Assembly (NCBI GenBank): GCA_963826715.1
Contig: CAWGYA010000007.1
Coordinates: forward strand, 128,001-192,000
Direction: 5' to 3'
Length of the DNA stretch: 64,000 nt
Origin: Candidatus Bathyarchaeota archaeon
GTDB taxonomy: Archaea; Thermoproteota; Bathyarchaeia; Bathyarchaeales; Bathycorpusculaceae
Shown: in pieces, positions 16,692-64,000 of the stretch
Layout of the letters: every line of letters starts with the position of its first letter
How positions within the stretch are numbered: position 1 is the first letter of the stretch
Program-made: the position numbers and the translations under genes
Notes under the pieces: model-generated
What the model was told of the DNA's origin: nothing
The model's database searches: none
The model's input: the letters and a program-made list of their open reading frames with translations, nothing else

Positions 16692-16724
16692 CCTTAAAGC
16701 GATTCCTAGTTCCGTTCAGAAAAG

Positions 16725-18491: not shown

Positions 18492-18603
18492 ATTATCTGA
18501 CCCGTTACAGTTAGCACCTTTTATCGGCTTTAATTCTTATCTACTTCAGGTTTATCTTAAATTTATATAGAACAGCAGCAAGAGCCAAGTGCTAGTTTTT
18601 ACA

Positions 18604-19671: not shown

Positions 19672-20823
19672 CTAGCCACTTTCCTTTAGCAACTTCTCGA
19701 ACCATTCCTGCTTCCCGAACCTTTCCTGTAATTCAAGAAATCTTTTACACGTAAACTGCTCAGGGCAAATAGGACATGTGAATTGGTTGCGTTCAGCTGC
19801 TTCTAATAACACTTGTTTTATCTGTGAATCCCTTATTTGCTTAGAATACCGTGGACCATGCCCAAAAACTAGTCCTCTTAAACTCGGCAACTGCTGGAAG
19901 AAGAATAACTGCTTCTCTTTTTCACACTTATTTTCCTCGTTTTCTTGCTCTTCCATACCCTCCGACAATTCTTTTATTATAGTCTCCTGAAATTGTTCCC
20001 CAAACTCCCAAGAGTAGAATCCTACATCGGTATAGATGGCCATTATGAGTAGATAAATTACAATGTCTGACGTCTGTACTGCAAGTTGGAAAACTTTCTT
20101 GAATTCCTTTGGTTCGTAATAAACAAAGGGTATTATCTCAGATTCTATTCTGAAGTCTCTCAAGTTTGTGTGTGTATAGCTGGAAAGCTGGCTATATGTA
20201 AAATAAATTAACTCAGCTTTTTTATGATCTCCATATTCTAAACCGTCAAGCCAACGATTCTCAATAGCATTGGGAAGGTTACCAATTCCACGAAGTTTGG
20301 TAGGTCGCTTTTTTTCTTTGCCAACTCGTTTATTTTTTACCCAAGTTGTCAGCTTGCTATTCTTACTGAAGTCTTTGGATACTGAGTCGGTAAACTCGAG
20401 GAATTCTATAAATTCTTCAAAAGTCATGCTTGCTCCTTTATGCGTCGCATCACCAGTTAGGATCGATTTGTCATCAACAGCGACGAAAGCTTTTATCGTG
20501 GTTTCTAACATCCAACGGAGAGTACGAGCTGCAGAATCGTATGCCCCGCCTGTAATCATTAGCACAACTCCGTTGAATTCTCTGGAAATAATTCGAGTTA
20601 GCTTTCCAGGAAGCGAGGACCCTTCTTCTATTAAACAATCATCGATGTATTTGCCACATTTGCTTTTATACAAATGCGGAATTTTTGTCTCAAGCCACTC
20701 ATACAAAATACTAATTTCTTGTAATAAGGCTAGACGTTTCTGGTTGGTTTTAGCTCTCGAAGTATAATTAAACACGTGGATAAAGTGGTCGGGTAATCGA
20801 GTGGGCATTTTACATCCCTGCAA
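19672..20823 (-). CDS. Helical hypothetical protein (HEPN/DUF5677-like) with C-terminal Cys cluster
   Basis: Y.SAA..LR..LE and Y..LS.Y.H pattern; CPICPEQFTC. Confidence 0.5.
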   Translation of the reverse strand: MQGCKMPTRLPDHFIHVFNYTSRAKTNQKRLALLQEISILYEWLETKIPHLYKSKCGKYIDDCLIEEGSSLPGKLTRIISREFNGVVLMITGGAYDSAARTLRWMLETTIKAFVAVDDKSILTGDATHKGASMTFEEFIEFLEFTDSVSKDFSKNSKLTTWVKNKRVGKEKKRPTKLRGIGNLPNAIENRWLDGLEYGDHKKAELIYFTYSQLSSYTHTNLRDFRIESEIIPFVYYEPKEFKKVFQLAVQTSDIVIYLLIMAIYTDVGFYSWEFGEQFQETIIKELSEGMEEQENEENKCEKEKQLFFFQQLPSLRGLVFGHGPRYSKQIRDSQIKQVLLEAAERNQFTCPICPEQFTCKRFLELQERFGKQEWFEKLLKESG

Positions 20824-20955
20824 TCAGTGTTTAAGATTGTTTACCGGTCAATTGATTGTTTATCATAGAAAGTGCATTATTATATTTAAGCGGTTTATCG
20901 CTTAGCCTAGATTTAATATTGGAGATGATGCAATTGATAGTAGGGTTACCCCTAA

Positions 20956-22221
20956 ATGGCTGAAATTGAAGAACAATGTTGTGAGGATTGTGGTTCCGAG
21001 GGTGAAATAGGGGACGGTCTTATTCGATGTCCAAGGCTCGAGAAGACTAAAAATCGGAAAATCTTATGGATACATAAAAAATGTTGTGCAACCGACCAAT
21101 TAACATACCAAAGAAAACTGCGCTTGCTGGGAAAGGAAGCACAGATACCAGGGATTGAAGAATGTTCAAAATGTGAACAGGGAAAAGAAGCAATAAAAGA
21201 AGGCGGTTACGACAGCTGGCCATGCTGTGAGAGTTGGGATTGTGACGTAGATTTTAAGGGTTTAACAAAGGAAGTTTGGCGTGGCATACCTGTCTATGTG
21301 CCGCCAGATAAAATATGGGCTATTACAAATGAAGGCGATCGGCTATTAGAATTATTTAAACCACTAAACATTGTAACTAGTTCCATAATTGACGAAGAAG
21401 CCCAAGTTTACTATGTTAAAGACCATAAGAAGAACATCACTGCATACTCACTTCAGTCTTTGAATGAAATTGAAAAAAGGCTCCCGTGGGGGTTTGGTAG
21501 CACTGAAAAATTTAGGGCGGCTAATGGTCCACTTTGTATTTTAAGTGAGCTTTATGATAATCCATTCGGTGCAATGCTGGCACCCTGGTTGTGCAACAAA
21601 GGCAAGGATATCAAACAGATAGGCCTCGATTTAGCCACTAAGTTTAGGATTAAATATTTTGAAGCAGAGAAATTTTTTGGTGTAGATCTTGCGGCGAATC
21701 ATGAAACGCTCAAGTGTAAAATACAAAGTTTGTCTGAAAACGCGTTTATTCAAGAAATTCTAGTTCCAGTATTAAAAGCTCAAGACTTTCAATCAGTTAA
21801 GCCTATTTCTTTCCACGGTCCGGGTGAATGCGGCGGAGATTTTCATCCATTCTATAAGGTGAATGAATTTGGAAAAATTGTGTATTATTCCGCCCAAGCC
21901 AAAGCTGTCAAGATTCATGCGACCTCTGGAAAGAAAGAAGGTAACGTAAATCAACTAATCGATGAACTTAAAAAGCTCTTTAGAACACCTTTCCCAACAT
22001 TCGTTGACAACACTCAAAAGAGAATTACGCAAGCTTTCGTTTTCTGTTCGCAAGATATTACAAAGGAAGCAAGTGATCAATTATTTAACGAATTTGAAGA
22101 AAGACAGCAAATACTTCTTATCGATATTGACGACATAGTTGATGCTGTACTAGAGAGAGGGTTGGCCAGCCAAATACTGGATAGTTGTATGAAGAAAGAA
22201 ACGATCGATTCAAAACTTTAG
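20956..22221 (+). CDS. Cys-rich N-terminus plus C-terminal Mrr-like restriction endonuclease domain
   Basis: E..F....L..L, HGPGECGGD, AQAK. Confidence 0.65.
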   Translation: MAEIEEQCCEDCGSEGEIGDGLIRCPRLEKTKNRKILWIHKKCCATDQLTYQRKLRLLGKEAQIPGIEECSKCEQGKEAIKEGGYDSWPCCESWDCDVDFKGLTKEVWRGIPVYVPPDKIWAITNEGDRLLELFKPLNIVTSSIIDEEAQVYYVKDHKKNITAYSLQSLNEIEKRLPWGFGSTEKFRAANGPLCILSELYDNPFGAMLAPWLCNKGKDIKQIGLDLATKFRIKYFEAEKFFGVDLAANHETLKCKIQSLSENAFIQEILVPVLKAQDFQSVKPISFHGPGECGGDFHPFYKVNEFGKIVYYSAQAKAVKIHATSGKKEGNVNQLIDELKKLFRTPFPTFVDNTQKRITQAFVFCSQDITKEASDQLFNEFEERQQILLIDIDDIVDAVLERGLASQILDSCMKKETIDSKL

Positions 22222-27169: not shown

Positions 27170-27852
27170 TGGAATTCGATTTTTATAACACCTGGAGGGA
27201 GCCTGACAGTTTCCGAGCGCAGAGCGTCGTAGGAAGCTTCACCCTAAATGATGTTAAGCTGCAGAAGCACTTCAAGGGATCTCTACCCATAGAAGATGAT
27301 GATTGGCAGGTAGGCATAATTGTTGGCCCCAGCGGATCGGGCAAGAGCAGCATCGCAAAAAGACTCTTCCCCAACGAGTACATCACAAGTTTCCAGTACC
27401 AGGGCAAATGCATCCTCGACGACTTTCCGGCTGAGCTTAGCACATCAGAGATTACCCGTATGCTCTGCAGCGTCGGATTTGCTTCTCCACCGGATTGGCT
27501 AAAGGCTTACAGTTGTCTTAGCCAGGGCGAGAAAATGCGAGTTGACGTCGCAAGGGCATTATGCCTGCCTCAGAAATGCATTGTCTTCGACGAATTTACC
27601 AGCGTCGTGGACCGAGAAGTTGCTAAAATCGGATCCTACGCCATCAGCAAAGCCGTCCGAGTCCAAAGCGGAAAACAATTCATAGCGGTCACCTGCCACT
27701 TCGACGTCATAGACTGGCTAGAAGTCGATTGGGTCTTCAACACCGATACAATGGAGTTTGACCGAAAAAAAGAAGTCGGCCGCCCGTTGAGCTCAAAGTT
27801 TACCGGTGCGGCAATTCCATGTGGAAGAGCTTTCGGCAATATCACTATTTGA
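27169..27852 (+). CDS. ABC-type ATPase of a viral DNA-modification module
   Basis: GPSGSGKS, LSQGE, VFDEF, VTCH. Confidence 0.9.
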   Translation: MEFDFYNTWREPDSFRAQSVVGSFTLNDVKLQKHFKGSLPIEDDDWQVGIIVGPSGSGKSSIAKRLFPNEYITSFQYQGKCILDDFPAELSTSEITRMLCSVGFASPPDWLKAYSCLSQGEKMRVDVARALCLPQKCIVFDEFTSVVDREVAKIGSYAISKAVRVQSGKQFIAVTCHFDVIDWLEVDWVFNTDTMEFDRKKEVGRPLSSKFTGAAIPCGRAFGNITI

Positions 27853-28253
27853 ATGGTAAGCTCGGTGCCGGAGTGCGATGCTACGTTGCTGTCTACAACG
27901 AGAAACCTGTTGGTTTTGTTGCTGTTGTGCATACAAGGATGAAAGCCAATTACTTCCGGGTGAGTCGCCTGGTGGTTCTGCCCGATTACCAAGGAATAGG
28001 CTTAGGCAAACGGCTACTCAACTTCATCGCTGAACTCTACACTTCCCAAATCAACCTACCCTTCTATTTGGTTACTTCAAATCCTCAGCTTGTCCGAGGC
28101 AACTTGGGGAACTGGCGTGTGAAGCGTGTTGGGCATGGCACAGCTGGAAGCGAAGACACTAGAATAAACTCAGAACTCACCAAGAGCAACAGCAAACGAC
28201 GCCTAAGCGTAACCCTACAGTATATGCCTAAGCTGAAATCTGGAGGTTCTTAG
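27819..28253 (+). CDS. GNAT acetyltransferase, probably fused to the ATPase via a -1 frameshift
   Basis: F..YHYL, SRLVVLPDYQGIGLG; the same frame is open back to A AAA AAA at 27765-27771. Confidence 0.85.
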   Translation: MWKSFRQYHYLNGKLGAGVRCYVAVYNEKPVGFVAVVHTRMKANYFRVSRLVVLPDYQGIGLGKRLLNFIAELYTSQINLPFYLVTSNPQLVRGNLGNWRVKRVGHGTAGSEDTRINSELTKSNSKRRLSVTLQYMPKLKSGGS

Positions 28254-28408
28254 TGCCAAAATACTGCAAAGGCAAATGCGGCCGAAAAATCTCCTACCAA
28301 AACAAAACCGGCTATTGCAAAGAATGCTTTGGCCGTTTCATTCTTAGCCCTAAGGGTGCTAATGCAAGCAGGAGAGATACATCAAAACTAAAATCAACCA
28401 AAAGGTAG
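28253..28408 (+). CDS. Small zinc-finger protein
   Basis: GGAGG, GTG; MPKYCKGKCGRKISYQNKTGYCKEC. Confidence 0.6.
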   Translation: MPKYCKGKCGRKISYQNKTGYCKECFGRFILSPKGANASRRDTSKLKSTKR

Positions 28409-28927
28409 AAACACAAAACTACTATGTAGTAATTCGCCATTTAACATTAATTTAAACTCAGCACTATGACCTGCAACCTTATTCATTACGTCAAGACCAG
28501 TCAGAATGCTCGCTTGTATAGTCTTTGATTCACCAGAACGAATGATACCTATAGGTTCATTCCAAGCGCTATAGTTTTCGCTTGAAACTCCAGTAATGTT
28601 CACACTTAAAAGCAAACCCTCTATATCATTGATGCCCTCGTTATGAATAGTGACGTTGATTAAGCAATCCATAGTCATTCCTGCTGGATTCCGCCAAGTG
28701 TTCCCAGATGAGAGAGAGACAATTTTTGCGATATTAATCATCGGGGTAGGAGTTGGGGAAGGAGTAGGCGTTGGGGTTGGACTAAGAGTTGGAGAAGAAG
28801 TGGGAGTGCTATTTGAAGGTGAAGGAGTGAATATTTGAATATTCTGCGTAAAATACCAAGCAGAAAATGTTATTCCCACTATAGCGATAAGAACAATGCC
28901 GTAAACAGTTTTTCTATCTATTATCAC
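28394..28927 (-). CDS. Membrane-anchored surface protein with Pro/Thr linker and Ig/CARDB-like domain
   Basis: N-terminal TM, PTPTP linker, INVTIHNEG. Confidence 0.7.
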   Translation of the reverse strand: MIIDRKTVYGIVLIAIVGITFSAWYFTQNIQIFTPSPSNSTPTSSPTLSPTPTPTPSPTPTPMINIAKIVSLSSGNTWRNPAGMTMDCLINVTIHNEGINDIEGLLLSVNITGVSSENYSAWNEPIGIIRSGESKTIQASILTGLDVMNKVAGHSAEFKLMLNGELLHSSFVFLPFG

Positions 28928-29009
28928 TTATTTCAGCTTCCAAGTTTTCTATTTTAAGCAGTTAATTTGTCAGCTTAAGAGCTTTTTTGTCCACATTCCT
29001 ATACTAACC

Positions 29010-29031
29010 TTTGTCAACGTTTCTTGACCAA
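29010..29031. repeat. Motif A (dif-like palindrome)
   Basis: TTTGTCAA-CGTTTC-TTGACCAA. Confidence 0.7.
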
Positions 29032-29041
29032 AACAAAGAGA

Positions 29042-29071
29042 GGGTGGATAGTCTAGTCGTGAGAAAAAGGT
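29042..29071 (+). repeat. Motif B copy 1
   Basis: GGGTGGATAGTCTAGTCGTGAGAAAAAGGT. Confidence 0.7.
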
Positions 29072-29114
29072 CTTAATTGTCTCTATGAAGGGGTCAGTTT
29101 TGTTTCTTTGTTCC

Positions 29115-29366
29115 TTATCGTTTCATAATGAAAAATACATTGACTACTATAGTGAAGATAAAAATAAACAACGGATAATTGGGTAATGGCTCAATTAATG
29201 TTGGTGGATATTTAATTGAACTTTGAAAACTAACATCTATGAAAATACCTACATTACCTACAATCGTGTCTTTTAATAAAAAAAGGAGTTGCTCAATAGA
29301 CAGAAATAGAAACAAATCCATTATAACGTTAAACATGAGGATGATTGCTGTAAATCTTTTTGTCAT
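29115..29366 (-). CDS. Small two-TM membrane protein
   Basis: Hydrophobic helices; shares promoter and 3' sequence with 29439..29657. Confidence 0.6.
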   Translation of the reverse strand: MTKRFTAIILMFNVIMDLFLFLSIEQLLFLLKDTIVGNVGIFIDVSFQSSIKYPPTLIEPLPNYPLFIFIFTIVVNVFFIMKR

Positions 29367-29438
29367 AGATAAACACCAATCGAATGTGATTCAATAAGTT
29401 CAGATTTGTTTTGACCTTGCTTAAAGATTTTACAATAA

Positions 29439-29657
29439 CTAAGAAGGGGTCTGTTTTGTTTCAGTTATTTTCATTTTTTGAATGATTATTGCGATAGTAA
29501 TTAAGACTACTCCGATAACCAAAAAAGCCACATTCAAATCCGATGCTAAATTCCAGCGGTGAGGGTAAAAGATGAAATTAAAAATTGAAAATACAAATAA
29601 AATAGTTCCAATGACCGATAGAAGACTAACGCTCATTCTTTTGGTTTGTTTGTCCAT
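29439..29657 (-). CDS. Small two-TM membrane protein
   Basis: Hydrophobic helices, basic tail. Confidence 0.6.
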   Translation of the reverse strand: MDKQTKRMSVSLLSVIGTILFVFSIFNFIFYPHRWNLASDLNVAFLVIGVVLITIAIIIQKMKITETKQTPS

Positions 29658-29721
29658 TTTTACTTAATCCTCAATCAAGTGTTAATTTGTTTTGACCTTG
29701 CTTAAAAGATTTAGCGTTATA

Positions 29722-29752
29722 GGCAAGGTACATCCAAGCGTGGGAAAAATGT
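29722..29752 (+). repeat. Motif B copy 2
   Basis: GGCAAGGTACATCCAAGCGTGGGAAAAATGT. Confidence 0.6.
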
Positions 29753-29825
29753 ACTTATTAGGCTGTAACAAGTCTTAATACTATTAGTTGTGAAGCCAAT
29801 ATTTAATCAAAGATGAAACCTTCCT

Positions 29826-30095
29826 ATGTCAACAAAAAGATTATTTCATTTTGTGTCAATACTTACTTTGGCAGTTTTTGCAATATTAGTAGGTCTGTTT
29901 CTTTTCAAATTAAGGTTCTTTGGTGATTCAGACATCTGGTGGTATGGTGCTCTTTTCCAAGTTGAACATTACAGTAACTCAGATGTATGGCTTTATGGTG
30001 CAGTAACAGGTTTTTTTGCATGGCTATTCTTAGGACTACTTATTGCAACGGCTTTTCTATTTTACAAACTCAGTATGGAGAAAAGGCTGCAATAA
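29826..30095 (+). CDS. Small two-TM membrane protein
   Basis: Internal duplication DSDIWWYGA / NSDVWLYGA. Confidence 0.6.
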   Translation: MSTKRLFHFVSILTLAVFAILVGLFLFKLRFFGDSDIWWYGALFQVEHYSNSDVWLYGAVTGFFAWLFLGLLIATAFLFYKLSMEKRLQ

Positions 30096-30139
30096 GAGAG
30101 TTTGAAACATTGAAGTTAACCCTTGTCGTTACTTAGGCA

Positions 30140-30169
30140 GGGTGGGGTAGTCTATTGGTGGGAAAAGGT
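30140..30169 (+). repeat. Motif B copy 3
   Basis: GGGTGGGGTAGTCTATTGGTGGGAAAAGGT. Confidence 0.7.
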
Positions 30170-30269
30170 CTTGAAATTTTGATAAGTCCAGAAAACTGGA
30201 CTGATTATTATTTACCGTTTAAGGCTGGTCTACAAAATAGGGATTAAATACGTTAATAGATATTTATGA

Positions 30270-31148
30270 TTGCAAGGAAGAACCAACATGGAAGACCTGA
30301 ATCGGATAGAACAAGACAAGCAAAGGGCAGAAGTATTTGACGCACTAGGTCATCCGACACGGATACTTATTCTTAAAGTCTTAAATGACGGTTCACTTGG
30401 GTTTGCAGAGTTAAAGAAGAAGACAGCTATTGAGAGTAGCGGACATCTGCAACATCATTTAACAAAACTCAATGGGTTGATAAAGACTGATGAATACGGC
30501 AAGTACTGCTTATCAGAACAAGGTAAAGATGCCTTACTAACCGTTCAAACAGTAGAGAATGCGTCACCCAAAAAAGAGGCAAAAGAGCAGGGAAAAAAAC
30601 ACTTAAAGGTGGGTTTAAAACCAGTTGTTGTCCTACTTACCGTTCTGTTAATTACAAGTTCGGCAATTGCAATATATGAATACAACCAAACGCTAATTCT
30701 AGAGAAGGGCAGTCTTTCTCCACAAATCCTTACTTCCTACAGTAGCGTAAACAATGGTTTGCAATTATCTATAACTCTTCACTTAGGCAAGACCCAATAT
30801 AAAATAGGTGAAGTAGTACCCATAACCTTCACCATTAATAATGTAAGCAACCAAACACTAACCTTCACTAACGTAAATGGCAACGCAAATTTCAACTTCC
30901 AAGTATACAATGGCAATAACAAAGAAGTTTACTCTTGGGTGCTTGGGGCTTATCCACTAACTAATGCATCTATACCTTTGAATCCAAACGGAAGCTATGC
31001 ACAAACGCTTAACTGGAATTCTGAAGTAAACCTATCAGGATTTTCACAGGCAAAGGCAGGAGTATACTATATAATAGGTGAAATTGGTGAAAACCAGCCA
31101 TACCAATTCCAAACAACACCACTTGCGATAACAATTGCTACCTCATAA
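30270..31148 (+). CDS. Membrane-spanning regulator: ArsR-type wHTH, TM and extracellular Ig-like domain
   Basis: FDALGHPTRILIL, SSGHLQHHL; TM; YKIGEVVPITFTINN. Confidence 0.8.
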   Translation: MQGRTNMEDLNRIEQDKQRAEVFDALGHPTRILILKVLNDGSLGFAELKKKTAIESSGHLQHHLTKLNGLIKTDEYGKYCLSEQGKDALLTVQTVENASPKKEAKEQGKKHLKVGLKPVVVLLTVLLITSSAIAIYEYNQTLILEKGSLSPQILTSYSSVNNGLQLSITLHLGKTQYKIGEVVPITFTINNVSNQTLTFTNVNGNANFNFQVYNGNNKEVYSWVLGAYPLTNASIPLNPNGSYAQTLNWNSEVNLSGFSQAKAGVYYIIGEIGENQPYQFQTTPLAITIATS

Positions 31149-31202
31149 TGCTTATCCGACAATTTGTTTCTTAACAAGCGTTCTTTATCTACAATTACAG
31201 AT

Positions 31203-31231
31203 GGTGGATACACCCAACTGTGGGAAAAGGT
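31203..31231 (+). repeat. Motif B copy 4
   Basis: GGTGGATACACCCAACTGTGGGAAAAGGT. Confidence 0.7.
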
Positions 31232-31259
31232 CAATGTTTATCTCAGCAGGTTTTTCTTC

Positions 31260-31772
31260 TTAAGGATTTGTAACTGTTAGGCTGAAGGTGTCTCCGCTTT
31301 TGTTTGTCAACTGACTATTTCCAAAAGCAATGACCATTGTGTAATCACCTATTGGGATATCTTTTGCCAATTCAACTGTCAAAATTGAAGAGTTAGTTTG
31401 CATAGAGGCAATATTGATGGAATTGGGATTAAATGTGTAATTGAAAGTTTTTTCTTGTGGCGAAATATCATAATAGGTCCAATTTGAAAACCTCAAAGTA
31501 AGATTCTCAAAAGGTATGGATATTTCTGTTTCAAGAAAAGATTTTAAGGTAACATTTACTTGAAAAGTTGCGCCTTGGGCAACATTTGGATGAAACGGAG
31601 AAACATCTGATGTAATCATTTGTTCGGGTTTAAAAGGAATCAGCCCAATTGGTCTATTTAACCAGTAATACCCACCAATTAAAAGAGAAGCGAATAAAAT
31701 AGCAATTAATGCTCCTATAGCTAATTTGCTATTCAAGCTTATCCCTATAATCCATGGTATTTCAAGTCGCAT
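31260..31772 (-). CDS. Membrane-anchored Ig-like surface protein
   Basis: N-terminal TM; VAQGATFQVNVTL, PIGDYTM. Confidence 0.65.
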   Translation of the reverse strand: MRLEIPWIIGISLNSKLAIGALIAILFASLLIGGYYWLNRPIGLIPFKPEQMITSDVSPFHPNVAQGATFQVNVTLKSFLETEISIPFENLTLRFSNWTYYDISPQEKTFNYTFNPNSINIASMQTNSSILTVELAKDIPIGDYTMVIAFGNSQLTNKSGDTFSLTVTNP

Positions 31773-31821
31773 TTAAGTCTAGGCTTTAGAACAGTCTCTA
31801 TCTTCAGCTATACTTGCTTAA

Positions 31822-31847
31822 GATAGGTACAATATCGCTGGAAAGGT
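31822..31847 (+). repeat. Motif B copy 5 (degenerate)
   Basis: GATAGGTACAATATCGCTGGAAAGGT, abutting the stop codon of 31847..32605. Confidence 0.5.
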
Positions 31848-32605
31848 CATTGAGCTGGTTTTGTGGTTTTTTGATGCCTTCTAAAAAGCAAAACAGAAAT
31901 GGCAATAATCACAATTATAGCCAATATAACGCCAACAGGTAATAAGTAATCTATCGGTTCAGAATGTGGTGGATTTTTTGGTGGGAGATATTCACTGTCT
32001 TGTTGGTGTATAGAAACTGTTGATTTTGCATCATTGACCGTTATGCCAAAGTTAGCCCAATCCCAACCATTGCCTTGTTCTTTAGCTATTCCGTCAATGT
32101 AAACGGTGGGGTTGCTATTGTTTGAATTATATAACTGAGAATAGTCTAGTCGTTGAGTGCCTTTTCCTACAACGGAATAGTTAAACCAGCTATCGGCTTT
32201 GAAGAAATAATTGCCCAAGTCAGTTAGATAGAAGTTGTATGAAACAATGGTTACATTGCAGTTATGAGCAGAAATGCCTAATCCTGTTGTTCCATTTCCT
32301 GTAGAAAAAAGGTTAAAACTCCATAGTGATGCTACATATCCGTCATCTGTGGCATTATGGGCAGGATAAAATCCAGATGTGTCATGATAACCACCAAAAG
32401 AAGCACCTTTTTGGAGAATGATTGTTGCATTCTCATCGGGGATAGCATACAGGGTAGTGGTTTCTATGACTGTAGGATCTGCATTTGCAGATTGAAAGGT
32501 AGCTATAGATATTAGGAATAATGCAACAAGCAATAAAACGGAAATCTTGCCGATACAACCCATACTCAGTATTAGAAATCGTTTATGATAAAAAGCTTTC
32601 AGCAA
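31847..32605 (-). CDS. Secreted surface protein with C-terminal TM and RRHQKT tail
   Basis: Signal peptide, C-terminal anchor; distant paralogue of 54937..55842 (NITITS / W.NY.V.G.G.Q). Confidence 0.7.
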   Translation of the reverse strand: MLKAFYHKRFLILSMGCIGKISVLLLVALFLISIATFQSANADPTVIETTTLYAIPDENATIILQKGASFGGYHDTSGFYPAHNATDDGYVASLWSFNLFSTGNGTTGLGISAHNCNVTIVSYNFYLTDLGNYFFKADSWFNYSVVGKGTQRLDYSQLYNSNNSNPTVYIDGIAKEQGNGWDWANFGITVNDAKSTVSIHQQDSEYLPPKNPPHSEPIDYLLPVGVILAIIVIIAISVLLFRRHQKTTKPAQ

Positions 32606-32619
32606 ACTCTCTTGACTAA
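32598..32619. repeat. Motif A copy
   Basis: TTCAGCAA-ACTCTC-TTGACTAA; weak B-like GCGGAAGAGGGT at 32643-32654. Confidence 0.55.
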
Positions 32620-32884
32620 GCTAAGTCATCGTTCACTTTGTTGCGGAAGAGGGTTGAACTCAAATCCTCTGGCACATCTGGGTTGTCAGTGGCATAATTA
32701 TCGCGGGAAATCCTTACATAATGCTTAATTATTTTTCCAAAAATTCTTTGAAATCAGTTTTGCTCAGTATTCCTGCGTGCAATTGCTTAAAAGCGAGCGC
32801 TTATTAGTGTAATTTATTGGTTAGCCTCTTGCAAGCAAGCGTTTAGTTTCCTCGCCTCCTTAGCGGGAGAGTGAACGGTTTGCA

Positions 32885-33193
32885 GTGGTTTCTGTCATTG
32901 TACATAATTTTGTTATGGTGTTGTTTATGCCTCATAAAAGAAGTTATCAGGGTAAAATTATTCAGCGGCAGCGAGAGCAAGATTTCAAAGCGATAAAGAT
33001 TCAGCGTAAGGCGGCTTGCCAATACATTAGGGAGACCGAGTTTCGTGATCACTTGATCGGCGAGACCGTTTGTCGAACTGATACTAATTCGATTACCGAT
33101 AAGTTGGCAAAGCTTTTTGGTCAACCTGAATCTGAAGCGATTCCTAACGTTGAGCCCGGCTTAGTTCTTATTGGACCCATTGAGGAGTTTTAA
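32885..33193 (+). CDS. Hypothetical viral protein
   Basis: First ORF of the late operon. Confidence 0.45.
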   Translation: MVSVIVHNFVMVLFMPHKRSYQGKIIQRQREQDFKAIKIQRKAACQYIRETEFRDHLIGETVCRTDTNSITDKLAKLFGQPESEAIPNVEPGLVLIGPIEEF

Positions 33194-33198
33194 TTCTG

Positions 33199-33453
33199 AT
33201 GCCTGAAGAGTCATGGCCTGATTATAGTTTATGCCCCAGTTGCCCTGAGATCAAGCGCAAGATTGACCGTATAGATCTGGCTCTTTTGGGAGAGGATGGC
33301 ACTGGCTTAAACGGGGGCATTGTTAAGGCTATAACGGATTTGCAGAAGAAGAGTAAGGTTTCGGCGAGTTGGGCAAATTTTGCAAAACCAATCGCCATTG
33401 GTGCTGTCACGTCGATTGTGACTTTTCTGTTAACTTACGCTTTAGCTCATTAA
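33199..33453 (+). CDS. Coiled-coil plus C-terminal TM protein (XhlA/holin-like)
   Basis: CPSC, L.GEDGTG, C-terminal TM. Confidence 0.55.
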   Translation: MPEESWPDYSLCPSCPEIKRKIDRIDLALLGEDGTGLNGGIVKAITDLQKKSKVSASWANFAKPIAIGAVTSIVTFLLTYALAH

Positions 33454-33953: not shown

Positions 33954-34454
33954 TTGTCAATTTCCATGGAAGAGGCCTTAGGTCTTAAGAAATCGGAGCC
34001 CAAGGTTGAGGAGTCGCCAGCAGAGGAAGAGGATAAAGAATACTCGCCTGCTGAGCTTAAGAAAATTCAGCGGGATAAAATTATTCTTGAGGAGACGGCA
34101 AATAAGGGCTCGACTATCCCTGAGATTTGCGAGATTTTGCGAGAAAAAGGGCATCCCACAAGTCAAAGAACTATCTGGACAGTTCTGCACAGTGACCGCG
34201 CCACTAAACTTAGGGAGGAGATGGAGCGCGCGCAGTGTAGGGACATTGCTCTATTGCGTGCTTATGCCTTGCAAGATAGGGATTTGAAGGCTTTAGCTGC
34301 GGCGATAGCAGCGCGCGGGCAGTCGATTAAGAACTTGACACCTAACAATCAGCCCAATGTCAATGTTGATGTCAAAGTAGACAATAAGATTGACGTCAGC
34401 AAAGAAGTTGCCGAAATCATAAAGTTTAGTCGTGAAGAAGATGCTGGCAAGTGA
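33954..34454 (+). CDS. Putative terminase small subunit
   Basis: HTH (TIPEICEIL..SQRTI), overlaps the terL start. Confidence 0.6.
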   Translation: MSISMEEALGLKKSEPKVEESPAEEEDKEYSPAELKKIQRDKIILEETANKGSTIPEICEILREKGHPTSQRTIWTVLHSDRATKLREEMERAQCRDIALLRAYALQDRDLKALAAAIAARGQSIKNLTPNNQPNVNVDVKVDNKIDVSKEVAEIIKFSREEDAGK

Positions 34455-35758
34455 AAGCCGATGTTTTGGGGTACGCTCTTAGAGATGGGCAGCTAAAGAT
34501 CGTTGGCTCCGTGCTAGATCCCAATGTTAAGCGGCTTATCGTTAGTGCAGTGACGCAGTATGGCAAAACGAGGGCAGTAGCCATTGGTGTTTTGCTCTAC
34601 ATTTTAGCGAATGAAAACAAGCGAATCTTGTTCATCGCGCCAACCATCGATCAAACCAATATTATCCGTAATTATGTCTCAGAGCATATTGCGGCAAGTC
34701 GTCAGCTGGCTTCTTTGGTAAATCGACCTAGGCGCAGCAGCCCTGAAGACTTAAAAAATGAGATGAGCAAGAAGCGTCTAACGCTCAAAAACGGCTGCGA
34801 AATCATTACATTAACAGCCCATGGCGCCGGAGAAGAACCTGGGAAGCAGCTGATGGGTTTTGGCGGCGACGTCATCGTCGTTGATGAGGCTTGCCTAATT
34901 CTTGATGAGGTTTATCGTAAGCGTATTAAGCGCATGTTGGGCAGTAACCCAGACAGCAAACTCATCATTTTGGTTAATCCGTGGCATCGGCGCAATTTTG
35001 CTTTTAGGGCTTGGCGGAATCCGAAGTTTAAGAAGATCCATATTGATTGGCGTCAAGCCGTCTTAGAGGGGCGTGTTACTGAAGAATTTATCGAGGATAT
35101 GCGCCAAGAGCTTTCAGATTATGAGTTTAAGGTGCTCTATGAGAGTGAGTTTGCGGAGGATTCTGAGGATTCTCTGATTCGTTGGGATTGGATCCAGCGT
35201 GCTCTCGTGAAGAAGGTTGAGTTTTCGGGTGCTACGCAGACGGTTTGGGGTTTAGATGTTGCTGAGCAAGGCAAGGACCTCACCGTTCTTACACGTGCAG
35301 AGACTGATGGCGTGCATTACGCTGTGACTGGACAGCAACATATCCAGGAGCGGGAAACAATGCCCACAGCAAATCGAGTGGCGGCTATTGTTCCAAAAAA
35401 TGAAGCCCTGCATGTTGATAGCATCGGTGTAGGCGCTGGCGTGTACAGTCGGCTGTCTGAAATGGGGTATAGAGCAGTTTCTGTTAGGGTTAGTATGTCT
35501 CCAACTTGTGAGGAAGATCGCTATCTGAATGAGAAGTCGCAGCGGTTTTGGAAGCTTCGCTCAATCTTTGAGCAAGACCTGATTAGCATTCCAAACAATC
35601 CACATCTAATTAGCCAGTTGTCACAGATACGCTATGAATTCACAGCTGCTGGCAAAATCCGCATTGTTGATCCGGAGGGTAAGAGCCCAGATTTTGCAGA
35701 TAGTTTAATGTTAACGCTTCTAGATTCGAGAAAGAGACCCAAGGCGGCAAATGCATAA
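34451..35758 (+). CDS. terL: Terminase large subunit
   Basis: TQYGKT, VIVVDEA, WGLDVA, VDSIGVGAGV, SPDFADS. Confidence 0.92.
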   Translation: MKADVLGYALRDGQLKIVGSVLDPNVKRLIVSAVTQYGKTRAVAIGVLLYILANENKRILFIAPTIDQTNIIRNYVSEHIAASRQLASLVNRPRRSSPEDLKNEMSKKRLTLKNGCEIITLTAHGAGEEPGKQLMGFGGDVIVVDEACLILDEVYRKRIKRMLGSNPDSKLIILVNPWHRRNFAFRAWRNPKFKKIHIDWRQAVLEGRVTEEFIEDMRQELSDYEFKVLYESEFAEDSEDSLIRWDWIQRALVKKVEFSGATQTVWGLDVAEQGKDLTVLTRAETDGVHYAVTGQQHIQERETMPTANRVAAIVPKNEALHVDSIGVGAGVYSRLSEMGYRAVSVRVSMSPTCEEDRYLNEKSQRFWKLRSIFEQDLISIPNNPHLISQLSQIRYEFTAAGKIRIVDPEGKSPDFADSLMLTLLDSRKRPKAANA

Positions 35759-40067: not shown

Positions 40068-40673
40068 TTATTTTGGTAATGAGATCCCGTTGATGGGATC
40101 GTAGGGCGCATAGTAGAGGTACTGGGTTGAATTTTGTTTTTGCGTAAAGGTTAGTTGCAGTCCATCGCTCATAAAGAATATGAAATTTGTTGGGGTTCCG
40201 CAGTGTACGTTAATAGTTGTGCTGTTCAATATTTTAGCCGTGTTTACATATTCTAAGTATGAGGCAATTGTTTTTCCCCCGCCTCCACGATGGTAAGCGT
40301 ATTGGTGAGCATCGACTACGTTAAAACCTTGGGACCTCAAATCATCAATGTACCACTGAACTTTGGTTCTTCTTTCAGCGGACGCCAAAGCGTTTGGGGT
40401 AAGCAACACTACAAGCAGAATAATGCTCGTCAAAAAAACGGCTGTAAGTATTTTTACGCTCTTTTGGCTGGGGCTTCTTTTCCACAAATATAAGAGCATA
40501 GGGATTCCTGTTCCCAAAATTAGCCCCAAAGATAACAGTTGAGTGATCGGTCCCCAAGTATCAGGAGAATTGCTTGAACGTGGGTATCCCCATTCCAAGA
40601 GCGCAACCATTGCAACACCTATGATTATCAAATAGCAGATTGCAATGGCTGCCTTCTTTAACTTAGACTGCAT
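40068..40673 (-). CDS. Inserted membrane protein (about 3 TM)
   Basis: Antisense to the virion operon. Confidence 0.65.
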   Translation of the reverse strand: MQSKLKKAAIAICYLIIIGVAMVALLEWGYPRSSNSPDTWGPITQLLSLGLILGTGIPMLLYLWKRSPSQKSVKILTAVFLTSIILLVVLLTPNALASAERRTKVQWYIDDLRSQGFNVVDAHQYAYHRGGGGKTIASYLEYVNTAKILNSTTINVHCGTPTNFIFFMSDGLQLTFTQKQNSTQYLYYAPYDPINGISLPK

Positions 40674-40762
40674 TGATTTCCAATCTATTGAACAACCGGT
40701 GTTTGCTTATAAATTCTGCCTTACATTGTCCAATTAGCGCCCGCGGAAAACCACCGCATCCC

Positions 40763-41920
40763 CTAACTAATTTCTTTCTTACGGCTATTGCGGTAAACCA
40801 AAAGGGCAGCAACGCCAACAACTAACGCTGCTACAGTAACAGCCGCAGCAACCATGATTGGAAAACCATTCTGATTCGAGTGAGGTGTTGGCGAAGGAGA
40901 TGGTGACTGAGCATCAATTGGTGCATACGCTTCATTAACGGCATATCCCTCACCCGATGACAAGATGTTGCCACCAGCACCTCCAAGAGCATACATAGTA
41001 TTATCTACAACTGCTACTGCCAATCTATCTCGAGCAGTTAACATAGGAACACCAACACTCCAAGAACTATTTTCAGGGTTGAAAACTTGAAGCATATTCG
41101 TTCTGCTGCCGCCTGTCCCCTTCTCGCCAAGTTGTCCACCAACAAGATAGATTCTTGCAGAACCAAGCGGATCCGTAAGGGTGCATGCTGCTGAATTTAG
41201 CATAGTTGTTTGCATCGGAATTCCAATAGTCCAAGAGTCAGTCGTGGAATCATAAATTTGGGTAATATTCAAATTTCTCGGGTCGTCGGAATTACCTTGA
41301 CCGCCCAGTACATAGATTTTGTTGCCAATTACTGTCGAAGAAAAAGAAGCAACAGGATAAGGTATAGGTTGTTTTGTTTCCCACTTCTCGCTAGTTGGGT
41401 CATAGACTTGATTTGTAGAGACCGCTGAATTTGGTCCACCTGTTATGCCACCAATCAAATAAATTTGGCCATTGACTACGTTTGCTTCAAAATTTGCCCG
41501 CGGGGTAGGCATTGGCTGTTTTATTTCCCAGGCATTGGTTGCAGGGTCATAGACTTCAATTGCTCCAGTAACTGAAGAACTGAAGGGAGCGCCCCTACCG
41601 GTTAAGCCGCCAATGCAGTAAATCTTACTTTGATATGCTGCTATGGCAAAGCTAAACCTCGGAGTGGGCATTGCTGCTTTGATTGTCCAGGTATCGGTTA
41701 TGGGATCATATTCTTCAGTATTGTTTAGATCGGTAAAACCTCCGATAGCGTAAATTTTTCCATTTACCTCGGCGGCGCCTAAAGATGTTCTTGCGGTTGG
41801 CATAGGCTCTTTGGACACCCAAGTGCCTATATCCCCATCAGCTCCATAAACAGGAGTAAGGACTACAACACCCGATATAAGAAATAAGGCAACAAGCAGC
41901 AGAGCATGGCTTTTTCTCAT
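40763..41920 (-). CDS. Secreted Kelch-repeat beta-propeller with C-terminal TM anchor
   Basis: Six MPT.R...KIY.IGG...YDP...W repeats. Confidence 0.9.
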   Translation of the reverse strand: MRKSHALLLVALFLISGVVVLTPVYGADGDIGTWVSKEPMPTARTSLGAAEVNGKIYAIGGFTDLNNTEEYDPITDTWTIKAAMPTPRFSFAIAAYQSKIYCIGGLTGRGAPFSSSVTGAIEVYDPATNAWEIKQPMPTPRANFEANVVNGQIYLIGGITGGPNSAVSTNQVYDPTSEKWETKQPIPYPVASFSSTVIGNKIYVLGGQGNSDDPRNLNITQIYDSTTDSWTIGIPMQTTMLNSAACTLTDPLGSARIYLVGGQLGEKGTGGSRTNMLQVFNPENSSWSVGVPMLTARDRLAVAVVDNTMYALGGAGGNILSSGEGYAVNEAYAPIDAQSPSPSPTPHSNQNGFPIMVAAAVTVAALVVGVAALLVYRNSRKKEIS

Positions 41921-62234: not shown

Positions 62235-62244
62235 GAGTAAGTAA

Positions 62245-62270
62245 ACCTTTTCCCACGGCTAGAATACACT
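62245..62270 (-). repeat. Motif B copy, inverted relative to the 29-32 kb array
   Basis: Minus strand AGTGTATTCTAGCCGTGGGAAAAGGT. Confidence 0.7.
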
Positions 62271-62822
62271 TTCATTTTAAGGCATGCTGTTTAGTGGTCC
62301 CTTTGCCTGCGACTGGTGAAAAGCATATTTCTCTAATTATGGACGCAGTTGCGGAAAAAGCTCTCATCAGTCTCCAGCTTAATATCCCCTGTCTTGAGCT
62401 TCAGCGTTGACTATATGTTAATTCTTATAAAGTGGCTTGGTGATAGGCCTATTTTGTGTAGGCCGCTCTGTGGAAAGCGGTAAGTTTCAATCTCTTCCCG
62501 GGGCTGCGGGCTTGCTAGTTTACTTCAAGAAACGCAAATACTACAGTCAATAGCAAAGAAACAAAACAGAACCCTTGGCATTCACCCGCTTATCCGCACG
62601 GATTCTACAGAGTATAACATGCGGCTGGCAGGAATGCTTTCTCCAAAGGAATGCGTCTCAAGTACAGTCGAGGCCTAATTAAAGATGACAAAGTAATCTC
62701 AGGAGTGGACAAGAAAGAAGTATTCACCGCTTTATAATTGACCTGCCCTTTGCCACATGATCGCGAGATATTAGAAACAAACCTCTTTGGCAAAAATAGA
62801 ACCCAAGCGACAACTGATTTGG

Positions 62823-63840: not shown

Positions 63841-64000
63841 ATGGTTGGATATTCAGGCGGGGTTAAGTCTTCTGACGTTTTTGGCACCTTCTCCAGCATG
63901 CCCGCTTGTGGATCCACGCTTCAAGAAAGCATCCCCCTAAACCCACCTTGCCCTCAATGTAACTCAAAACGGCTATGGCGAGACTCCAAACGTTACACAG
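63841..64000 (+). CDS. 5' end of a zinc-ribbon-led protein, probably a tyrosine integrase
   Basis: GGGAGG RBS; PPCPQCNSKRLWRDSKRY; catalytic domain not visible, integrase call rests on position and architecture. Confidence 0.5.
   Translation, partial: MVGYSGGVKSSDVFGTFSSMPACGSTLQESIPLNPPCPQCNSKRLWRDSKRYT

Follow-up and report, generated by a model that had tools for sequence, protein, structure and literature searches.

Several described systems place a short conserved site beside each of a series of genes. In shufflons and the Mycoplasma vsa/vpma-type loci, the sites are inverted and segments are inverted onto one expression site. REP/BIME-type repeats and MITEs are short conserved intergenic elements that often lie just downstream of stop codons. 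The closest relatives of the locus described here are integrons and the clusters of attC sites without an integrase (CALINs), which have also been described from archaea (Ghaly et al. 2022, PMC9668308). Our analysis concerns a 64,000-nt stretch of Candidatus Bathyarchaeota DNA, called the window below, in which a provirus slot with motif-separated genes hints at a gene-cassette system not described before. The evidence is comparative throughout and was drawn from metagenome-assembled genomes (MAGs) and metagenome contigs.

The cargo slot and its genes

In the window, the array occupies a hypervariable cargo slot in a head-tailed, temperate provirus of a Bathyarchaeia archaeon (Table 1). Sister proviruses are 83-93% identical to the window until 28392/28394 and again from 32723/32762, and between these borders they are unrelated save for about 500 nt in the wHTH gene. 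GC content is 0.32-0.41 in the slot versus 0.45-0.49 in the viral flanks. Over 20 proviruses of the genus keep the early genes on the left, as far as window position 28394, and the terminase on the right is 94-96% identical in L065-L067, in agreement with a first-pass annotation of the window that had placed the array between early and late viral genes. Its description of seven AT-rich genes for membrane or secreted proteins also holds, with at least one predicted transmembrane-like segment in all seven slot ORFs and GC values of 0.28-0.39.

The slot content is a block of a genus-wide type of gene array, the self-contained modules of which encode small membrane/surface proteins and a wHTH protein. 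The product of this wHTH gene, gene C, is likely a membrane-anchored regulator. Homologues of its N-terminal half are found at 60-84% identity in many genomes of the genus (33/120 at a best E<=1e-40). The cassettes of the window are each distributed differently over the genus: gene A3 has 86-90% identical copies in G128 and G107 and lies directly after a motif in L048, and gene A matches neither a Pfam family nor, at E<=1e-15, any DNA elsewhere in the genus. The remnant of a basic tail, shifted out of frame, lies between the stop of gene D and motif copy c4.

Table 1. Features of the window, with strand and basis of assignment
Feature	Position	Strand	Basis and remarks
GNAT acetyltransferase and small Zn-ribbon ORF	27819..28408	+	last conserved early genes; left slot border; Pfam
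Variable cargo slot (array of the first-pass annotation)	28394..32722	.	sister-provirus comparison and GC
Gene A	28394..28927	-	N-terminal membrane anchor, Pro/Thr linker, ectodomain; predicted from sequence
Motif copy c1	29040..29072	+	matrix 21.2; N8 class; diverged box B GTGAGAAAAAGGTC
Gene A2	29115..29366	-	83 aa, two hydrophobic segments; sequence
Gene A3	29439..29657	-	72-aa two-TM protein, tail ...ITETKQTPS; sequence
Motif copy c2	29720..29753	+	matrix 23.9; N9 class; box B end diverged
Gene B	29826..30095	+	89-aa membrane protein, strand shared with motifs; sequence
Motif copy c3	30139..30171	+	matrix 42.9; N8 class; 116 nt upstream of wHTH gene
Gene C	30288..31148	+	wHTH (DUF7347), one TM segment (residues 112-130), ectodomain; PF24038, E 8e-11
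Motif copy c4	31200..31233	+	matrix 47.3; N9 class; between convergent genes
Gene D	31260..31772	-	170 aa, N-terminally anchored; sequence
Motif copy c5, degenerate	31822..31849	+	alignment with other copies; overlaps TGA stop of gene E
Gene E	31847..32563	-	signal/anchor, ectodomain, C-terminal TM, basic tail RRHQKT; sequence
Large terminase	34451..35758	+	Terminase_6N/6C; first recognisable late gene right of slot
Motif copy c6, solitary, inverted	62243..62275	-	matrix 31.2; 9 nt past stop of gene 61782-62234(+)
Tyrosine-recombinase gene start	63841..64000	+	continues beyond window; PF00589, 73.8 bits at C7:192519-192977

The motif and its distribution in the host genus

The motif is an asymmetric site of about 32 nt with the consensus GGGTGGGTAYAC-N5/6-GTGGGAAAAGGTC, in which box A (GGGTAYAC) and box B are separated by a variable spacer of 5-6 nt. 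Scores come from a weight matrix that was derived from 91 copies across the genus and did not include c1 and c2. Matches scoring at least 18 number 12 in the whole 2.64-Mb genome (about 10 sites) versus 0 in 1 Mb of block-shuffled genome. The 28-nt pattern of the first-pass annotation, at up to three mismatches, gives 2 matches against 0.02 expected; the bare 13-mer at the same tolerance shows no enrichment, with 18 matches against 16.5 expected.

Five of the six internal junctions of the array carry a copy on the plus strand, as the earlier annotation had reported, and the junction at 29366/29439 has none. Copy c1 lies 41 nt beyond the stop of gene A2 and c2 is flanked by divergent genes. Copy c5 is degenerate and aligns with the other copies; it was missed by the matrix because its box B is 2 nt short. 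Gene E ends in ...FRRHQKTTKPAQ, with the TGA within GGTCA, and canonical copies in relatives overlap a stop in the same way. The inverted copy noted earlier at 62245 was recovered as c6, whose placement is canonical (gene, stop, motif on the opposite strand). A weak copy proposed near 32643 was not recovered: the matrix gives no match of at least 12 there, and the sequence does not align with the true copies at that border in sister proviruses. The motif has no long hairpin, no covariation and no inverted-repeat core of the usual tyrosine-recombinase kind. It is linear and sequence-specific, as expected of a protein site.

The motif is restricted to the host genus and is not a property of the virus. 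Its exact pattern occurs in 6 of 24 further genomes from the genus versus 0 of 16 from other families, and at up to one mismatch it occurs in 54 of 120 genus genomes (131 matches versus 23 for a reversed-pattern control). Arrays are located in chromosomes, in integrase-bearing islands and in two provirus lineages. Among neighbouring copies at most 3 kb apart in 27 loci, all selected for containing the motif, orientation is the same in 25 cases and opposite in 0 at scores of at least 35. At scores of at least 25, again with 27 loci, 43 are the same and 2 opposite, both exceptions being S- or E-type end variants. This orientation is kept even where the intervening genes are flipped. As a rule, a copy stands 0-15 nt beyond the stop codon of an opposite-strand gene.

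Homology breakpoints

In comparisons of aligned sequence, homology between genomes switches on and off at the motif. The first-pass annotation had expected indels in relatives to break there, and they do. L053 has two motifs around a gene for an 89-aa membrane protein and L062 has one motif, with flanks 94-96% identical on both sides. Positions 2634-3199 of L048 match 2943-2378 of L050 at 96%, motif to motif, and the DNA outside is unrelated. The block comprising c4, gene D and c5 is 93% identical in G053:C227, where it starts exactly at c4 and its flanks are unrelated. Contigs from two soil metagenomes join 30073 to 31199, skipping the wHTH cassette (side of 62 nt), and 31234 to 31867, skipping gene D (side of 27 nt). 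Others carry a c3-like or c4-like motif end, then 14 nt, then gene A3. Contigs also start or end at the 5′ edges of c2 (29712/29716), c3 (30130/30135) and c4 (31199/31201).

Long collinear homologies between motif-centred 600-nt segments are one-sided in 18 of 22 cases, ending at +14 to +19 or starting at -20 to -1, with outliers at +29 and +32 and two near -90, at a neighbouring copy. Of the four two-sided cases, three come from one pair of nearly identical proviruses and the fourth is a self-overlap. When the segments were shifted by 450 nt as a control, two-sided homologies made up 27 of 36. The breakpoints do not fall at a single nucleotide and are spread over the whole motif. Left-shared blocks extend through box B (spacer identity 0.89-1.0), and some right-shared blocks contain the entire motif (spacer identity 0.44-1.0, versus a background of 0.44). 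This spread is explained no less well by crossing-over anywhere in a short homology patch than by a fixed cleavage point. In our own reading of the list of 27 high-identity blocks, about half of the internal ends lie away from any motif; an example is the 97.5% identical wHTH block common to L048 and L065.

Recombinases near the arrays

The first-pass annotation saw no cognate recombinase in the window apart from a possible integrase at its end. That gene proved to be a real tyrosine-recombinase gene (full ORF at C7:191841-193109), which sits at the provirus end and has no S-type site, as defined below, beside it within the window. The slot itself holds neither an int gene nor an S site; candidates are found elsewhere in the genus. 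Of 9 arrays in five genomes, 5 lie within 4-10 kb of a PF00589 gene. A motif variant, S, with the form GTATACCCTCT-N3-AT-N-GGAAAAGGTAG, was found at 11 sites in 8 of 120 genomes and at 0 in a reversed control. All but one of the 11 follow a tyrosine-recombinase gene on its downstream side, in fixed relative orientation, at about 250-270 nt in nine and about 680 nt in one partial match; one of the genes is a pseudogene. These recombinases share only 21-58% identity across clades, yet the placement of S holds. No single recombinase lineage tracks the motif, with the L100-type (at least 77% identity) in 4/120 genomes, S in 8/120 and the motif in 54/120.

Mechanism and alternatives

The reading that we favor, with a confidence that goes no further than an even balance, is that cassette-like modules recombine at a linear site, probably by means of trans-acting tyrosine recombinases. 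The motif would be a recombination site recognised by a protein. Exchange between two copies in direct repeat would remove a motif-to-motif unit and the reverse reaction would insert a unit at a resident copy, so modules would be gained, lost and re-sorted singly, irrespective of gene orientation. The enzyme would be encoded outside the slot, the most likely candidates being tyrosine recombinases from integrative elements found in the same genus; these elements have S some 250 nt downstream from the int operon, with adjoining motif-punctuated cargo. The window would then hold a CALIN-like array without an integrase that had come to lie in a provirus cargo slot, and such an array would diversify the surface proteins of the lysogen.

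Less likely, though the main rival, is the alternative that the motif is first and foremost a cis-acting 3′-end element (a factor-dependent terminator, an insulator or an mRNA 3′-end signal of a mobile-element family) and that shuffling is a by-product requiring no dedicated recombinase. With 30-70 nt at the motif as the sole conserved stretch between unrelated genes, short-homology recombination or gene conversion would take place there. Coupling to opposite-strand stops is indeed tight (79 of 99 non-redundant copies face one, at a median of 12 nt and within 15 nt in 45 of the 79), and spacing to the next start is loose (median 88 nt; 10th-90th percentile 36-266). S likewise follows, by 2 nt, the stop codon of a small ORF closing the int operon, in the same gene-stop-antisense-motif arrangement, and in gene sense the motif starts CCTTTTCC. 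The scatter of breakpoints agrees with this alternative, and the homology patch is lengthened in 34 of 102 copies by an extra conserved stretch, GGTTTTTCGATGCC, the coding sequence of the basic tail. However, a host terminator would be expected at many genes rather than at about 10 sites per genome in fewer than half of the genomes. The T run is just 4, and runs of five or more T do not occur more often near the motif (0.27) than behind ordinary genes (0.36). Moreover, 14 of the 85 copies with genes on both sides are at no opposite-strand 3′ end and still keep the array orientation, and the preponderance of one-sided homologies would mean that a patch of 30 nt is exchanged at a very high rate.

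We consider it improbable that the motif is an operator of the membrane-anchored wHTH (DUF7347) regulator, marking a surface-protein regulon in which recombination is incidental. A linear, protein-site-like motif suits an operator, the window, L065 and 6 of 20 array loci contain a wHTH gene, and the motif lies 116-133 nt upstream of it in sense orientation in the window, L045 and L048. In our own cross-tabulation, 21 of 33 genomes with a close homologue are motif-positive versus 33 of 87 without one. Yet 12 of those 33 gene-bearing genomes have no motif, and copies are numerous in genomes lacking a close homologue (8 in G015, best E 1.4e-12; 6 in G093, with no homologue at 1e-10; 3 in G125, with none). 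The wHTH block of L065 has no upstream motif, and the motif would have no consistent placement or orientation with respect to the genes it regulates. Least probable, and largely refuted, is a site-specific capture system run by the provirus itself at the slot with the motif and a virus-encoded recombinase. Arrays do fill this slot in the window, L065 and L056, and in a second provirus lineage (L047/L055) they lie at the corresponding place, upstream of the terminase genes; in L065 and L056 a motif copy is retained at a distance of about 85-110 nt from the conserved late region, and a tyrosine recombinase sits at the provirus end. But of the 14 sister proviruses in which both borders are present, 12 carry other, motif-free cargo there (e.g., kinases, an ABC-type ATPase and large surface proteins), neither slot border of the window (28392/28394; about 32723) has a motif copy, most arrays sit in host chromosomes or integrase islands, and 12 pattern matches in IMG/VR include 0 convincing copies. 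The gene-capture reading of the first-pass annotation is retained insofar as the motif bounds independently assorting modules, and set aside insofar as, taken literally, it would make this the virus's own system.

Comparison with known systems

The arrays are not classical integrons, as the first-pass annotation had also held, since hairpin, attC and IntI are all absent; with the integron-integrase model, whose cut-off is 265 bits, the nearby recombinases score 42.6-47.9 bits. Integrons and CALINs nevertheless share with our locus arrays of short genes with one co-oriented site per junction directly after an ORF, the gain, loss and re-sorting of units at those sites, and a majority of arrays without an adjacent recombinase alongside a distinct site variant that adjoins a tyrosine-recombinase gene. 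In those systems the site is a folded imperfect palindrome, whereas ours is a 32-nt linear asymmetric site, and the variant lies upstream of a divergent intI rather than downstream of the int operon. Here, too, gene orientation is mixed, cassettes appear to carry their own upstream regions, and the array is known from sequence comparison.

Shufflons and vsa/vpma-type loci resemble the array in having a short conserved site per surface-protein gene and, if our reading is right, recombination between sites. Their genes are paralogous, whereas those of the array are mutually unrelated. The strong copies, unlike the sites of those loci, are direct repeats (25/25), so the products would be deletions and insertions. 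With REP/BIME-type repeats and MITEs the motif shares being short, conserved, intergenic and often just past stops, but it is non-palindromic, numbers about 10 per genome rather than hundreds, and is confined to particular arrays, at module boundaries. The slot itself resembles the cargo ("moron") hot spots of temperate tailed phages in its fixed position between early and late genes and in the unrelated, lower-GC accessory genes of sister proviruses. It differs from them in its internal punctuation and its own exchange pattern, both held in common with non-viral loci of the host genus.

Cargo slot of the provirus

The window holds two head-tailed proviruses, recognized through Pfam by their HK97-type capsid, tail tube and gp10-like proteins, in a genome of 2.64 Mb (8 contigs, ~41% GC). 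Several related proviruses reside in this genome, and the two in the window face each other in mirror orientation. A third, 60 kb upstream on the same contig (G000:C7:68400-75400, L081; G000 denotes this genome), has a 4-kb slot with the gene for an 867-aa surface protein, and a fourth on another contig (G000:C5, L001 10300-13817) is almost without a slot. A terminase 94-96% identical occurs in three contigs, two of them titled Candidatus Bathyarchaeota MAGs. Contig CAWGSB010000033.1 (L065) carries the same provirus, with a terminase 96% identical, under the title "uncultured Alphaproteobacteria bacterium"; a mistake in binning or labelling probably lies behind this name.

In the second provirus, the stretch 28394-32722 comprises seven ORFs in mixed orientation (two on the + strand, five on the - strand), each with at least one transmembrane-like segment and with GC between 0.28 and 0.39; gene C encodes a DUF7347 wHTH protein with a membrane anchor. 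Three relatives (L065, L066 and L067) match the window at 83-93% identity up to 28392/28394 and resume at 32723/32762, and between these borders they are unrelated to it except for ~500 nt of the wHTH gene. Searching the genus at the DNA level showed that more than 20 proviruses have the left flank in common, up to its end at window position 28394. The slot comparison covered 20 of these places plus L065 and L066; with L076 and L066 counted once, as one contig, there were 13 distinct relatives showing both borders and, with the window, 14 slots. A fixed position between conserved modules, unrelated content in close relatives and deviating base composition all mark this region as a phage cargo (moron) slot. 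The motif lies inside only two of the 14 slots (the window and L065), and a locus showing the right border only (L056) also carries it; the 12 motif-free slots, 0.56-4 kb long, carry genes for histidine kinases, for an ABC-type ATPase set or for one large surface protein each, or else small ORFs. Because those 12 slots lack the motif and the window's own slot borders are not at motif copies, the virus has a cargo hot spot whose own insertion site is not the motif.

Other parts of the neighborhood are also of accessory character. A low-GC island between the two proviruses (11895-22218) encodes DndB-like, GIY-YIG-like, JAB, TPR, DUF5677 and 8xMP proteins and looks like a defence or accessory island. 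A second cargo insertion, a Kelch-repeat gene with a neighboring ORF, lies antisense inside the late operon (40068-41917, - strand), and the weight-matrix scan of the window placed no motif copy there; locus L048 likewise has Kelch proteins with C-terminal anchors, within its motif arrays. In gene A, the Pro/Thr-rich linker (28752-28774) has 25 extra letters in metagenome contigs, a repeat length polymorphism. The N-terminal half of the wHTH protein (residues 1-140) and its C-terminal ectodomain (~148-284) match different genome sets, and the regulator family therefore appears to swap ectodomains. A 7-bp hairpin (GTCCAG AAAA CTGGAC, 30185-30202), 14 nt past copy c3, marks the start of a conserved region upstream of this gene.

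Coordinates of proviruses, slot genes and motif copies (window positions) and loci (L) and genomes (G) of integrase-bearing islands
Feature	Location	Strand	Remark
Provirus 1	~1-11 kb	-	Pfam
Provirus 2	from ~24 kb (24000-50000)	+	large terminase 34451-35758
Gene A	28394-28927	-	
Gene A2	29115-29366	-	
Gene A3	29439-29657	-	
Gene B	29826-30095	+	
Gene C	30288-31148	+	
Gene D	31260-31772	-	
Gene E	31847-32563	-	
Motif c1	29040	+	matrix score 21.2
Motif c2	29720	+	matrix score 23.9
Motif c3	30139	+	matrix score 42.9
Motif c4	31200	+	matrix score 47.3
Motif c5	31822	+	shortened box B; alignable with other copies; overlaps gene E stop codon
Motif c6	62243	-	matrix score 31.2
Island with int layout	L100+L045 (G014)		
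Island with int layout	L063+L104 (G128:C6)		
Island with int layout	L049+L102 (G015)		
Island with int layout	L051+L103 (G015)		

The motif and its structure

The motif has the consensus GGGTGGGTAYAC-N5/6-GTGGGAAAAGGTC (box A, spacer, box B) in two spacing classes. A weight matrix built from 91 copies genus-wide, with c1 and c2 left out, gave 12 matches scoring at least 18 in the whole genome and none in a 1-Mb shuffled control. Inside the slot, a copy sits at five of the six junctions, as the first-pass annotation had described, four by matrix and c5 by alignment; c5 escapes the matrix because its box B is shortened. The weak copy that the annotation had placed near 32643 found no support in either the matrix scan or the border comparison.

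Direct half-repeats, GTGGGTA and GTGGGAA, can be seen by inspection within the motif, 16 nt apart. One stem alone, GGGTG/CACCC, is plausible; depending on the position, it is paired in 39-58 of 71 copies, with no compensatory changes among those copies and with the top mutual information between neighboring positions. When nine 101-nt stretches were folded as single-stranded DNA (z between -2.71 and +2.23), the motif stayed unpaired in most, and the folds were no better than shuffles, except where hairpins fall outside the motif. These stem counts and folds rule out a hairpin or attC fold, and the absence of a long attC hairpin reported at first reading is borne out; the conservation is best described as that of a linear, asymmetric recognition sequence. 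An RNA family was likewise ruled out, with no Rfam match at E<=1 in 27800-33200. The N8 spacing class resembles a tRNA D-arm, and the idea of a tRNA or att remnant was rejected after ARAGORN reported no tRNA in the window. CRISPR repeats lie 25-50 nt apart; the motif copies are spaced by 400-1100 nt, a k-mer search of the assembly revealed no CRISPR-like array, and this relation was dropped. A fixed-distance upstream promoter was considered on account of a TTGCTTAAAAGATTT element before four copies, but the genus-wide logo contains no fixed element.

Distribution and gene context in the host genus

The exact pattern was found in 6 of 24 other genomes of the genus and in none of the 16 genomes that represent other families of the order, and a reversed-pattern control was never found in an exact search of the same genomes. 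With one mismatch allowed, 54 of 120 genomes gave 131 matches vs 23 for the control. Copies are clustered in arrays of 2-5 or more. Such arrays occupy chromosomal loci and islands with an integrase, and two provirus lineages have them immediately upstream of the terminase genes. In 27 loci, neighboring strong copies always share one orientation (25 of 25), and at a lower threshold 43 of 45 do, the two exceptions being end variants. On this evidence, the motif is real, oriented, genus-specific and a property of the host genus. IMG/VR yielded 12 pattern matches, which look like chance because none has the G-rich box A context or an array.

Gene position was counted over 99 non-redundant copies after removal of 13 redundant loci, all genomes being MAGs, the loci having been selected via the motif and counts across related genomes not being independent. 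On the 3' side of the motif, an opposite-strand gene has its stop facing box B in 79 of the 99, with a median gap of 12 nt (at most 15 nt in 45 of the 79), and its TGA often falls inside GGTCA; on the other side, the start codon is a median of 88 nt away. The neighbor combinations (left, right) were -,- in 56 cases, +,- in 15, -,+ in 7 and +,+ in 7. The array genes are mutually unrelated (Kelch, NosD/beta-helix and Ig-like surface proteins, many small membrane proteins and DUF7347 regulators), and for many of their products the sole common feature is a C-terminal anchor that has a basic tail (RRHRKT..., ETKQTPS). DNA encoding this tail directly follows the motif in 34 of 102 copies, in 20 of the 34 without an attached long ORF; of these tail-only copies, some are relics and others may be small ORFs.

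Homology breaks at the motif

Relatives were compared for cassette gain or loss breaking at the motif, the check attached to the first-pass annotation, and the outcome was positive in pairs of loci, in one shared block and in a segment comparison. Locus L053 (genome G020) has two copies 387 nt apart with the gene for an 89-aa membrane protein between them, and L062 (G127) has one copy whose box A and spacer equal those of the left copy of L053 and whose 3' flank equals that of the right copy; the flanks are 94-96% identical on both sides. L048 (2634-3199) and L050 (2943-2378) are 96% identical from one motif to the next, and the DNA outside is unrelated. The block c4-gene D-c5 recurs at 93% identity in G053:C227, starting from 31203, between unrelated flanks. 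In L043/L049 and in L016/L041, the motif attached to the same gene is of the N8 class in one genome and of the N9 class in the other.

In the segment comparison, 102 motif-centred 600-nt segments were set all against all and gave 22 long collinear homologies, some of them not independent, of which 18 were one-sided and 4 two-sided. Five of the one-sided homologies finish at +14 to +19 from the first base of box B, and the other 13 begin at -20 to -1 or +29/+32, or else at ~-90, the position of a second copy; the two-sided ones are a near-identical provirus pair (three) and a self-overlap (one). Among control segments shifted by 450 nt, 27 of 36 homologies were two-sided, and the one-sided controls that were traced (for example L048/L050 and L047/L055) stop at neighboring motif copies. 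Pairs sharing the 5' flank have spacer identities of 0.89-1.0 and diverge 1-6 nt after box B; for pairs sharing the 3' flank, spacer identity ranges from 0.44 to 1.0 against a background of 0.44, and some share the whole motif.

Further joints come from two soil metagenomes, in contigs 90-99% alike. One runs from 30073 to 31199 and skips c3 and the wHTH gene (side of 62 nt), another from 31234 to 31867 skips gene D (its side of 27 nt is under the tool's caution line), and a third joins the end of c3 or c4 through 14 other letters to gene A3 (29439). Contig ends at 29712/29716, 30130/30135 and 31199/31201 correspond to the 5' edges of c2, c3 and c4. These contigs come from other strains or relatives and therefore represent alternative adjacencies, not events in the genome itself. 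None of the 20 listed runs holding the region is on record as RNA.

Not every break is at a motif. Among 27 high-identity blocks compared by reading, about half of the internal ends lie away from it, for example in a 97.5% wHTH block of L048/L065. An empty-site comparison at a host locus carries no weight on the site either way: genome G047 has a motif-gene-motif unit between a gltB-like gene and rpoN/S9, where eight other genomes have shorter or different DNA without the motif, and the borders of this insert are gene ends, not motifs. Assembly chimeras may also arise at a 30-70-nt repeat; several of the genomes are single-contig assemblies. The motif is a strong hot spot and not the sole junction, and a short homology patch accounts for the data as well as a fixed cleavage site does.

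Recombinases and variant sites

No recombinase was found among the ORFs of the slot or its flanks or among 145 ORFs of at least 110 aa in 22 array loci. In the whole genome, 17 matches to PF00589 exceed the cut-off, and no serine recombinase was found. In five genomes rich in copies, a PF00589 tyrosine recombinase lies 4-10 kb from 5 of 9 arrays. A variant site, S (GTATACCCTCT-N3-AT-N-GGAAAAGGTAG), was found next to array-linked recombinase genes (int), just past the small membrane ORF that follows int and on the opposite strand. There are 11 S sites in 8 of 120 genomes and 0 in the control; 10 of the 11 are downstream of a tyrosine-recombinase gene in one relative orientation, the distance being ~250-270 nt for nine of them and ~680 nt for the tenth, a partial match. 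The S-linked recombinases fall into clades with only 21-58% identity between them, and the idea of co-distribution with one integrase lineage was rejected, as no single lineage matches the distribution of the motif.

Four islands share one layout, in which int and its small ORF are followed by S, then by variant sites grouped in a short sub-array (box B CCGTGAAAAGGTC or CACAGGAAAAGATA), and then by the main array in opposite orientation; a further inverted variant (GGGTATACCCC...GGAAAAGGTAT) lies ~150-180 nt beyond the last copy of the main array. The orientation switch consists of head-to-head pairs 7-8 nt apart in G014 and G128, and S and the far-end variant are mutually inverted. Neither S nor int was found within the window's slot. 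Elsewhere in the same genome, one S-linked recombinase gene is frameshifted and lies 0.3 kb from the motif copy C8:480128; it resembles the gene for the 281-aa recombinase of L100, and gene, S (479825) and motif fall within 1.5 kb (G000:C8:478724-480161, L002 5725-7162). A second S-like site (C6:110836) has no recombinase within 1.5 kb.

Interpretation

The comparisons show the motif's position at gene ends, its coincidence with module boundaries and the slot nature of the region. We give about even chances to the motif being a recombination site for trans-acting tyrosine recombinases, with deletion or insertion between direct repeats. Under a broader proposal, tyrosine recombinases of integrative elements would act on a family of linear 32-nt sites, the primary one (S) lying beside the int operon and a canonical one following each cassette, and would do so without attC-type folding. 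Acting in trans, they would also reach integrase-less arrays in chromosomes and provirus cargo slots and so keep reshuffling small membrane and surface proteins, some of which may alter the lysogen's susceptibility to viruses. That these parts together form an undescribed gene-cassette system in Bathyarchaeia of this genus, with S and canonical linear sites, trans-acting recombinases and surface-protein re-sorting, we propose tentatively, at somewhat under an even chance.

A less probable account, which we would still take seriously, makes the motif a cis element of gene 3' ends whose conservation seeds recombination. The facing stop codons suit it, and it predicts transcripts ending inside CCTTTTCCCAC. 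Archaeal intrinsic terminators have a run of at least five T at the transcript end; read in the sense of the gene, the motif offers only TTTT, and T5+ runs occur in 0.27 of motif regions vs 0.36 downstream of ordinary ORFs. Even on this modest reading the motif is a useful marker, delimiting exchangeable modules in ~45% of genomes in this large archaeal genus. We consider it improbable that the motif is an operator of the wHTH regulator: 21 of 33 genomes with a close homologue are motif-positive vs 33 of 87 others, a weak co-occurrence, yet several motif-rich genomes are without a close homologue, which 33 of 120 genomes have. The first-pass annotation had proposed a gene-capture system of the provirus itself, and in this literal, virus-encoded form the proposal is very improbable and was abandoned in view of the motif-free slots (12 of 14), the window borders off the motif and the spread of arrays through the host genus. 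The proposed cassette system, if real, would explain how proviruses acquire host surface-protein genes and provide a handle on cell-surface variation in uncultured sediment and soil archaea.

Comparison with known systems

To our knowledge, no cassette-capture platform other than the integron is well understood so far, and integrons depend on folded attC sites and a specialised IntI. A literature search for the 12-mer and its reverse complement returned only unrelated papers, and the portions of text retrieved on Bathyarchaeia, on provirus and cassette and on archaeal integrons contained no description of the motif or its arrays. We took the integron criteria (IntI, attC, co-oriented sites and cassette behaviour) from PMC9668308, in which IntI is a tyrosine recombinase with an IntI-specific domain next to the array, attC is an imperfect inverted repeat folding as single-stranded DNA, and cassettes are mostly promoterless and co-oriented behind one promoter, Pc. 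The motif arrays are like integrons and CALINs in layout and comparative signature: each cassette has one site, directly 3' of its ORF, two or more sites share an orientation at distances below 4 kb, and cassettes are gained, lost or reordered with junctions at the sites. In 79 of 99 copies, gene and motif are on opposite strands. Unlike in integrons, the motif has no attC-type inverted repeat, the genes are mixed in orientation in the window and its relatives with a median of 88 nt from motif to next start, and no integron integrase lies by an array, recombinases 4-10 kb from arrays in relatives scoring 47.9 and 42.6 bits on TIGR02249 (cut-off 265). Judged by these defining features, the arrays are outside the integron family, and the earlier description of them as distinct from classical integrons holds, as attC and IntI features are absent. 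Shufflon-type inversion switches have inverted sites flanking invertible segments, whereas here all 25 of 25 adjacent strong copies are direct repeats. If the proposed system is real, it would be a second cassette system, mechanistically different from integrons in its linear site, its ordinary-looking tyrosine recombinases and its cassettes that bring their own expression signals, and cassette-type genome plasticity would have arisen more than once.
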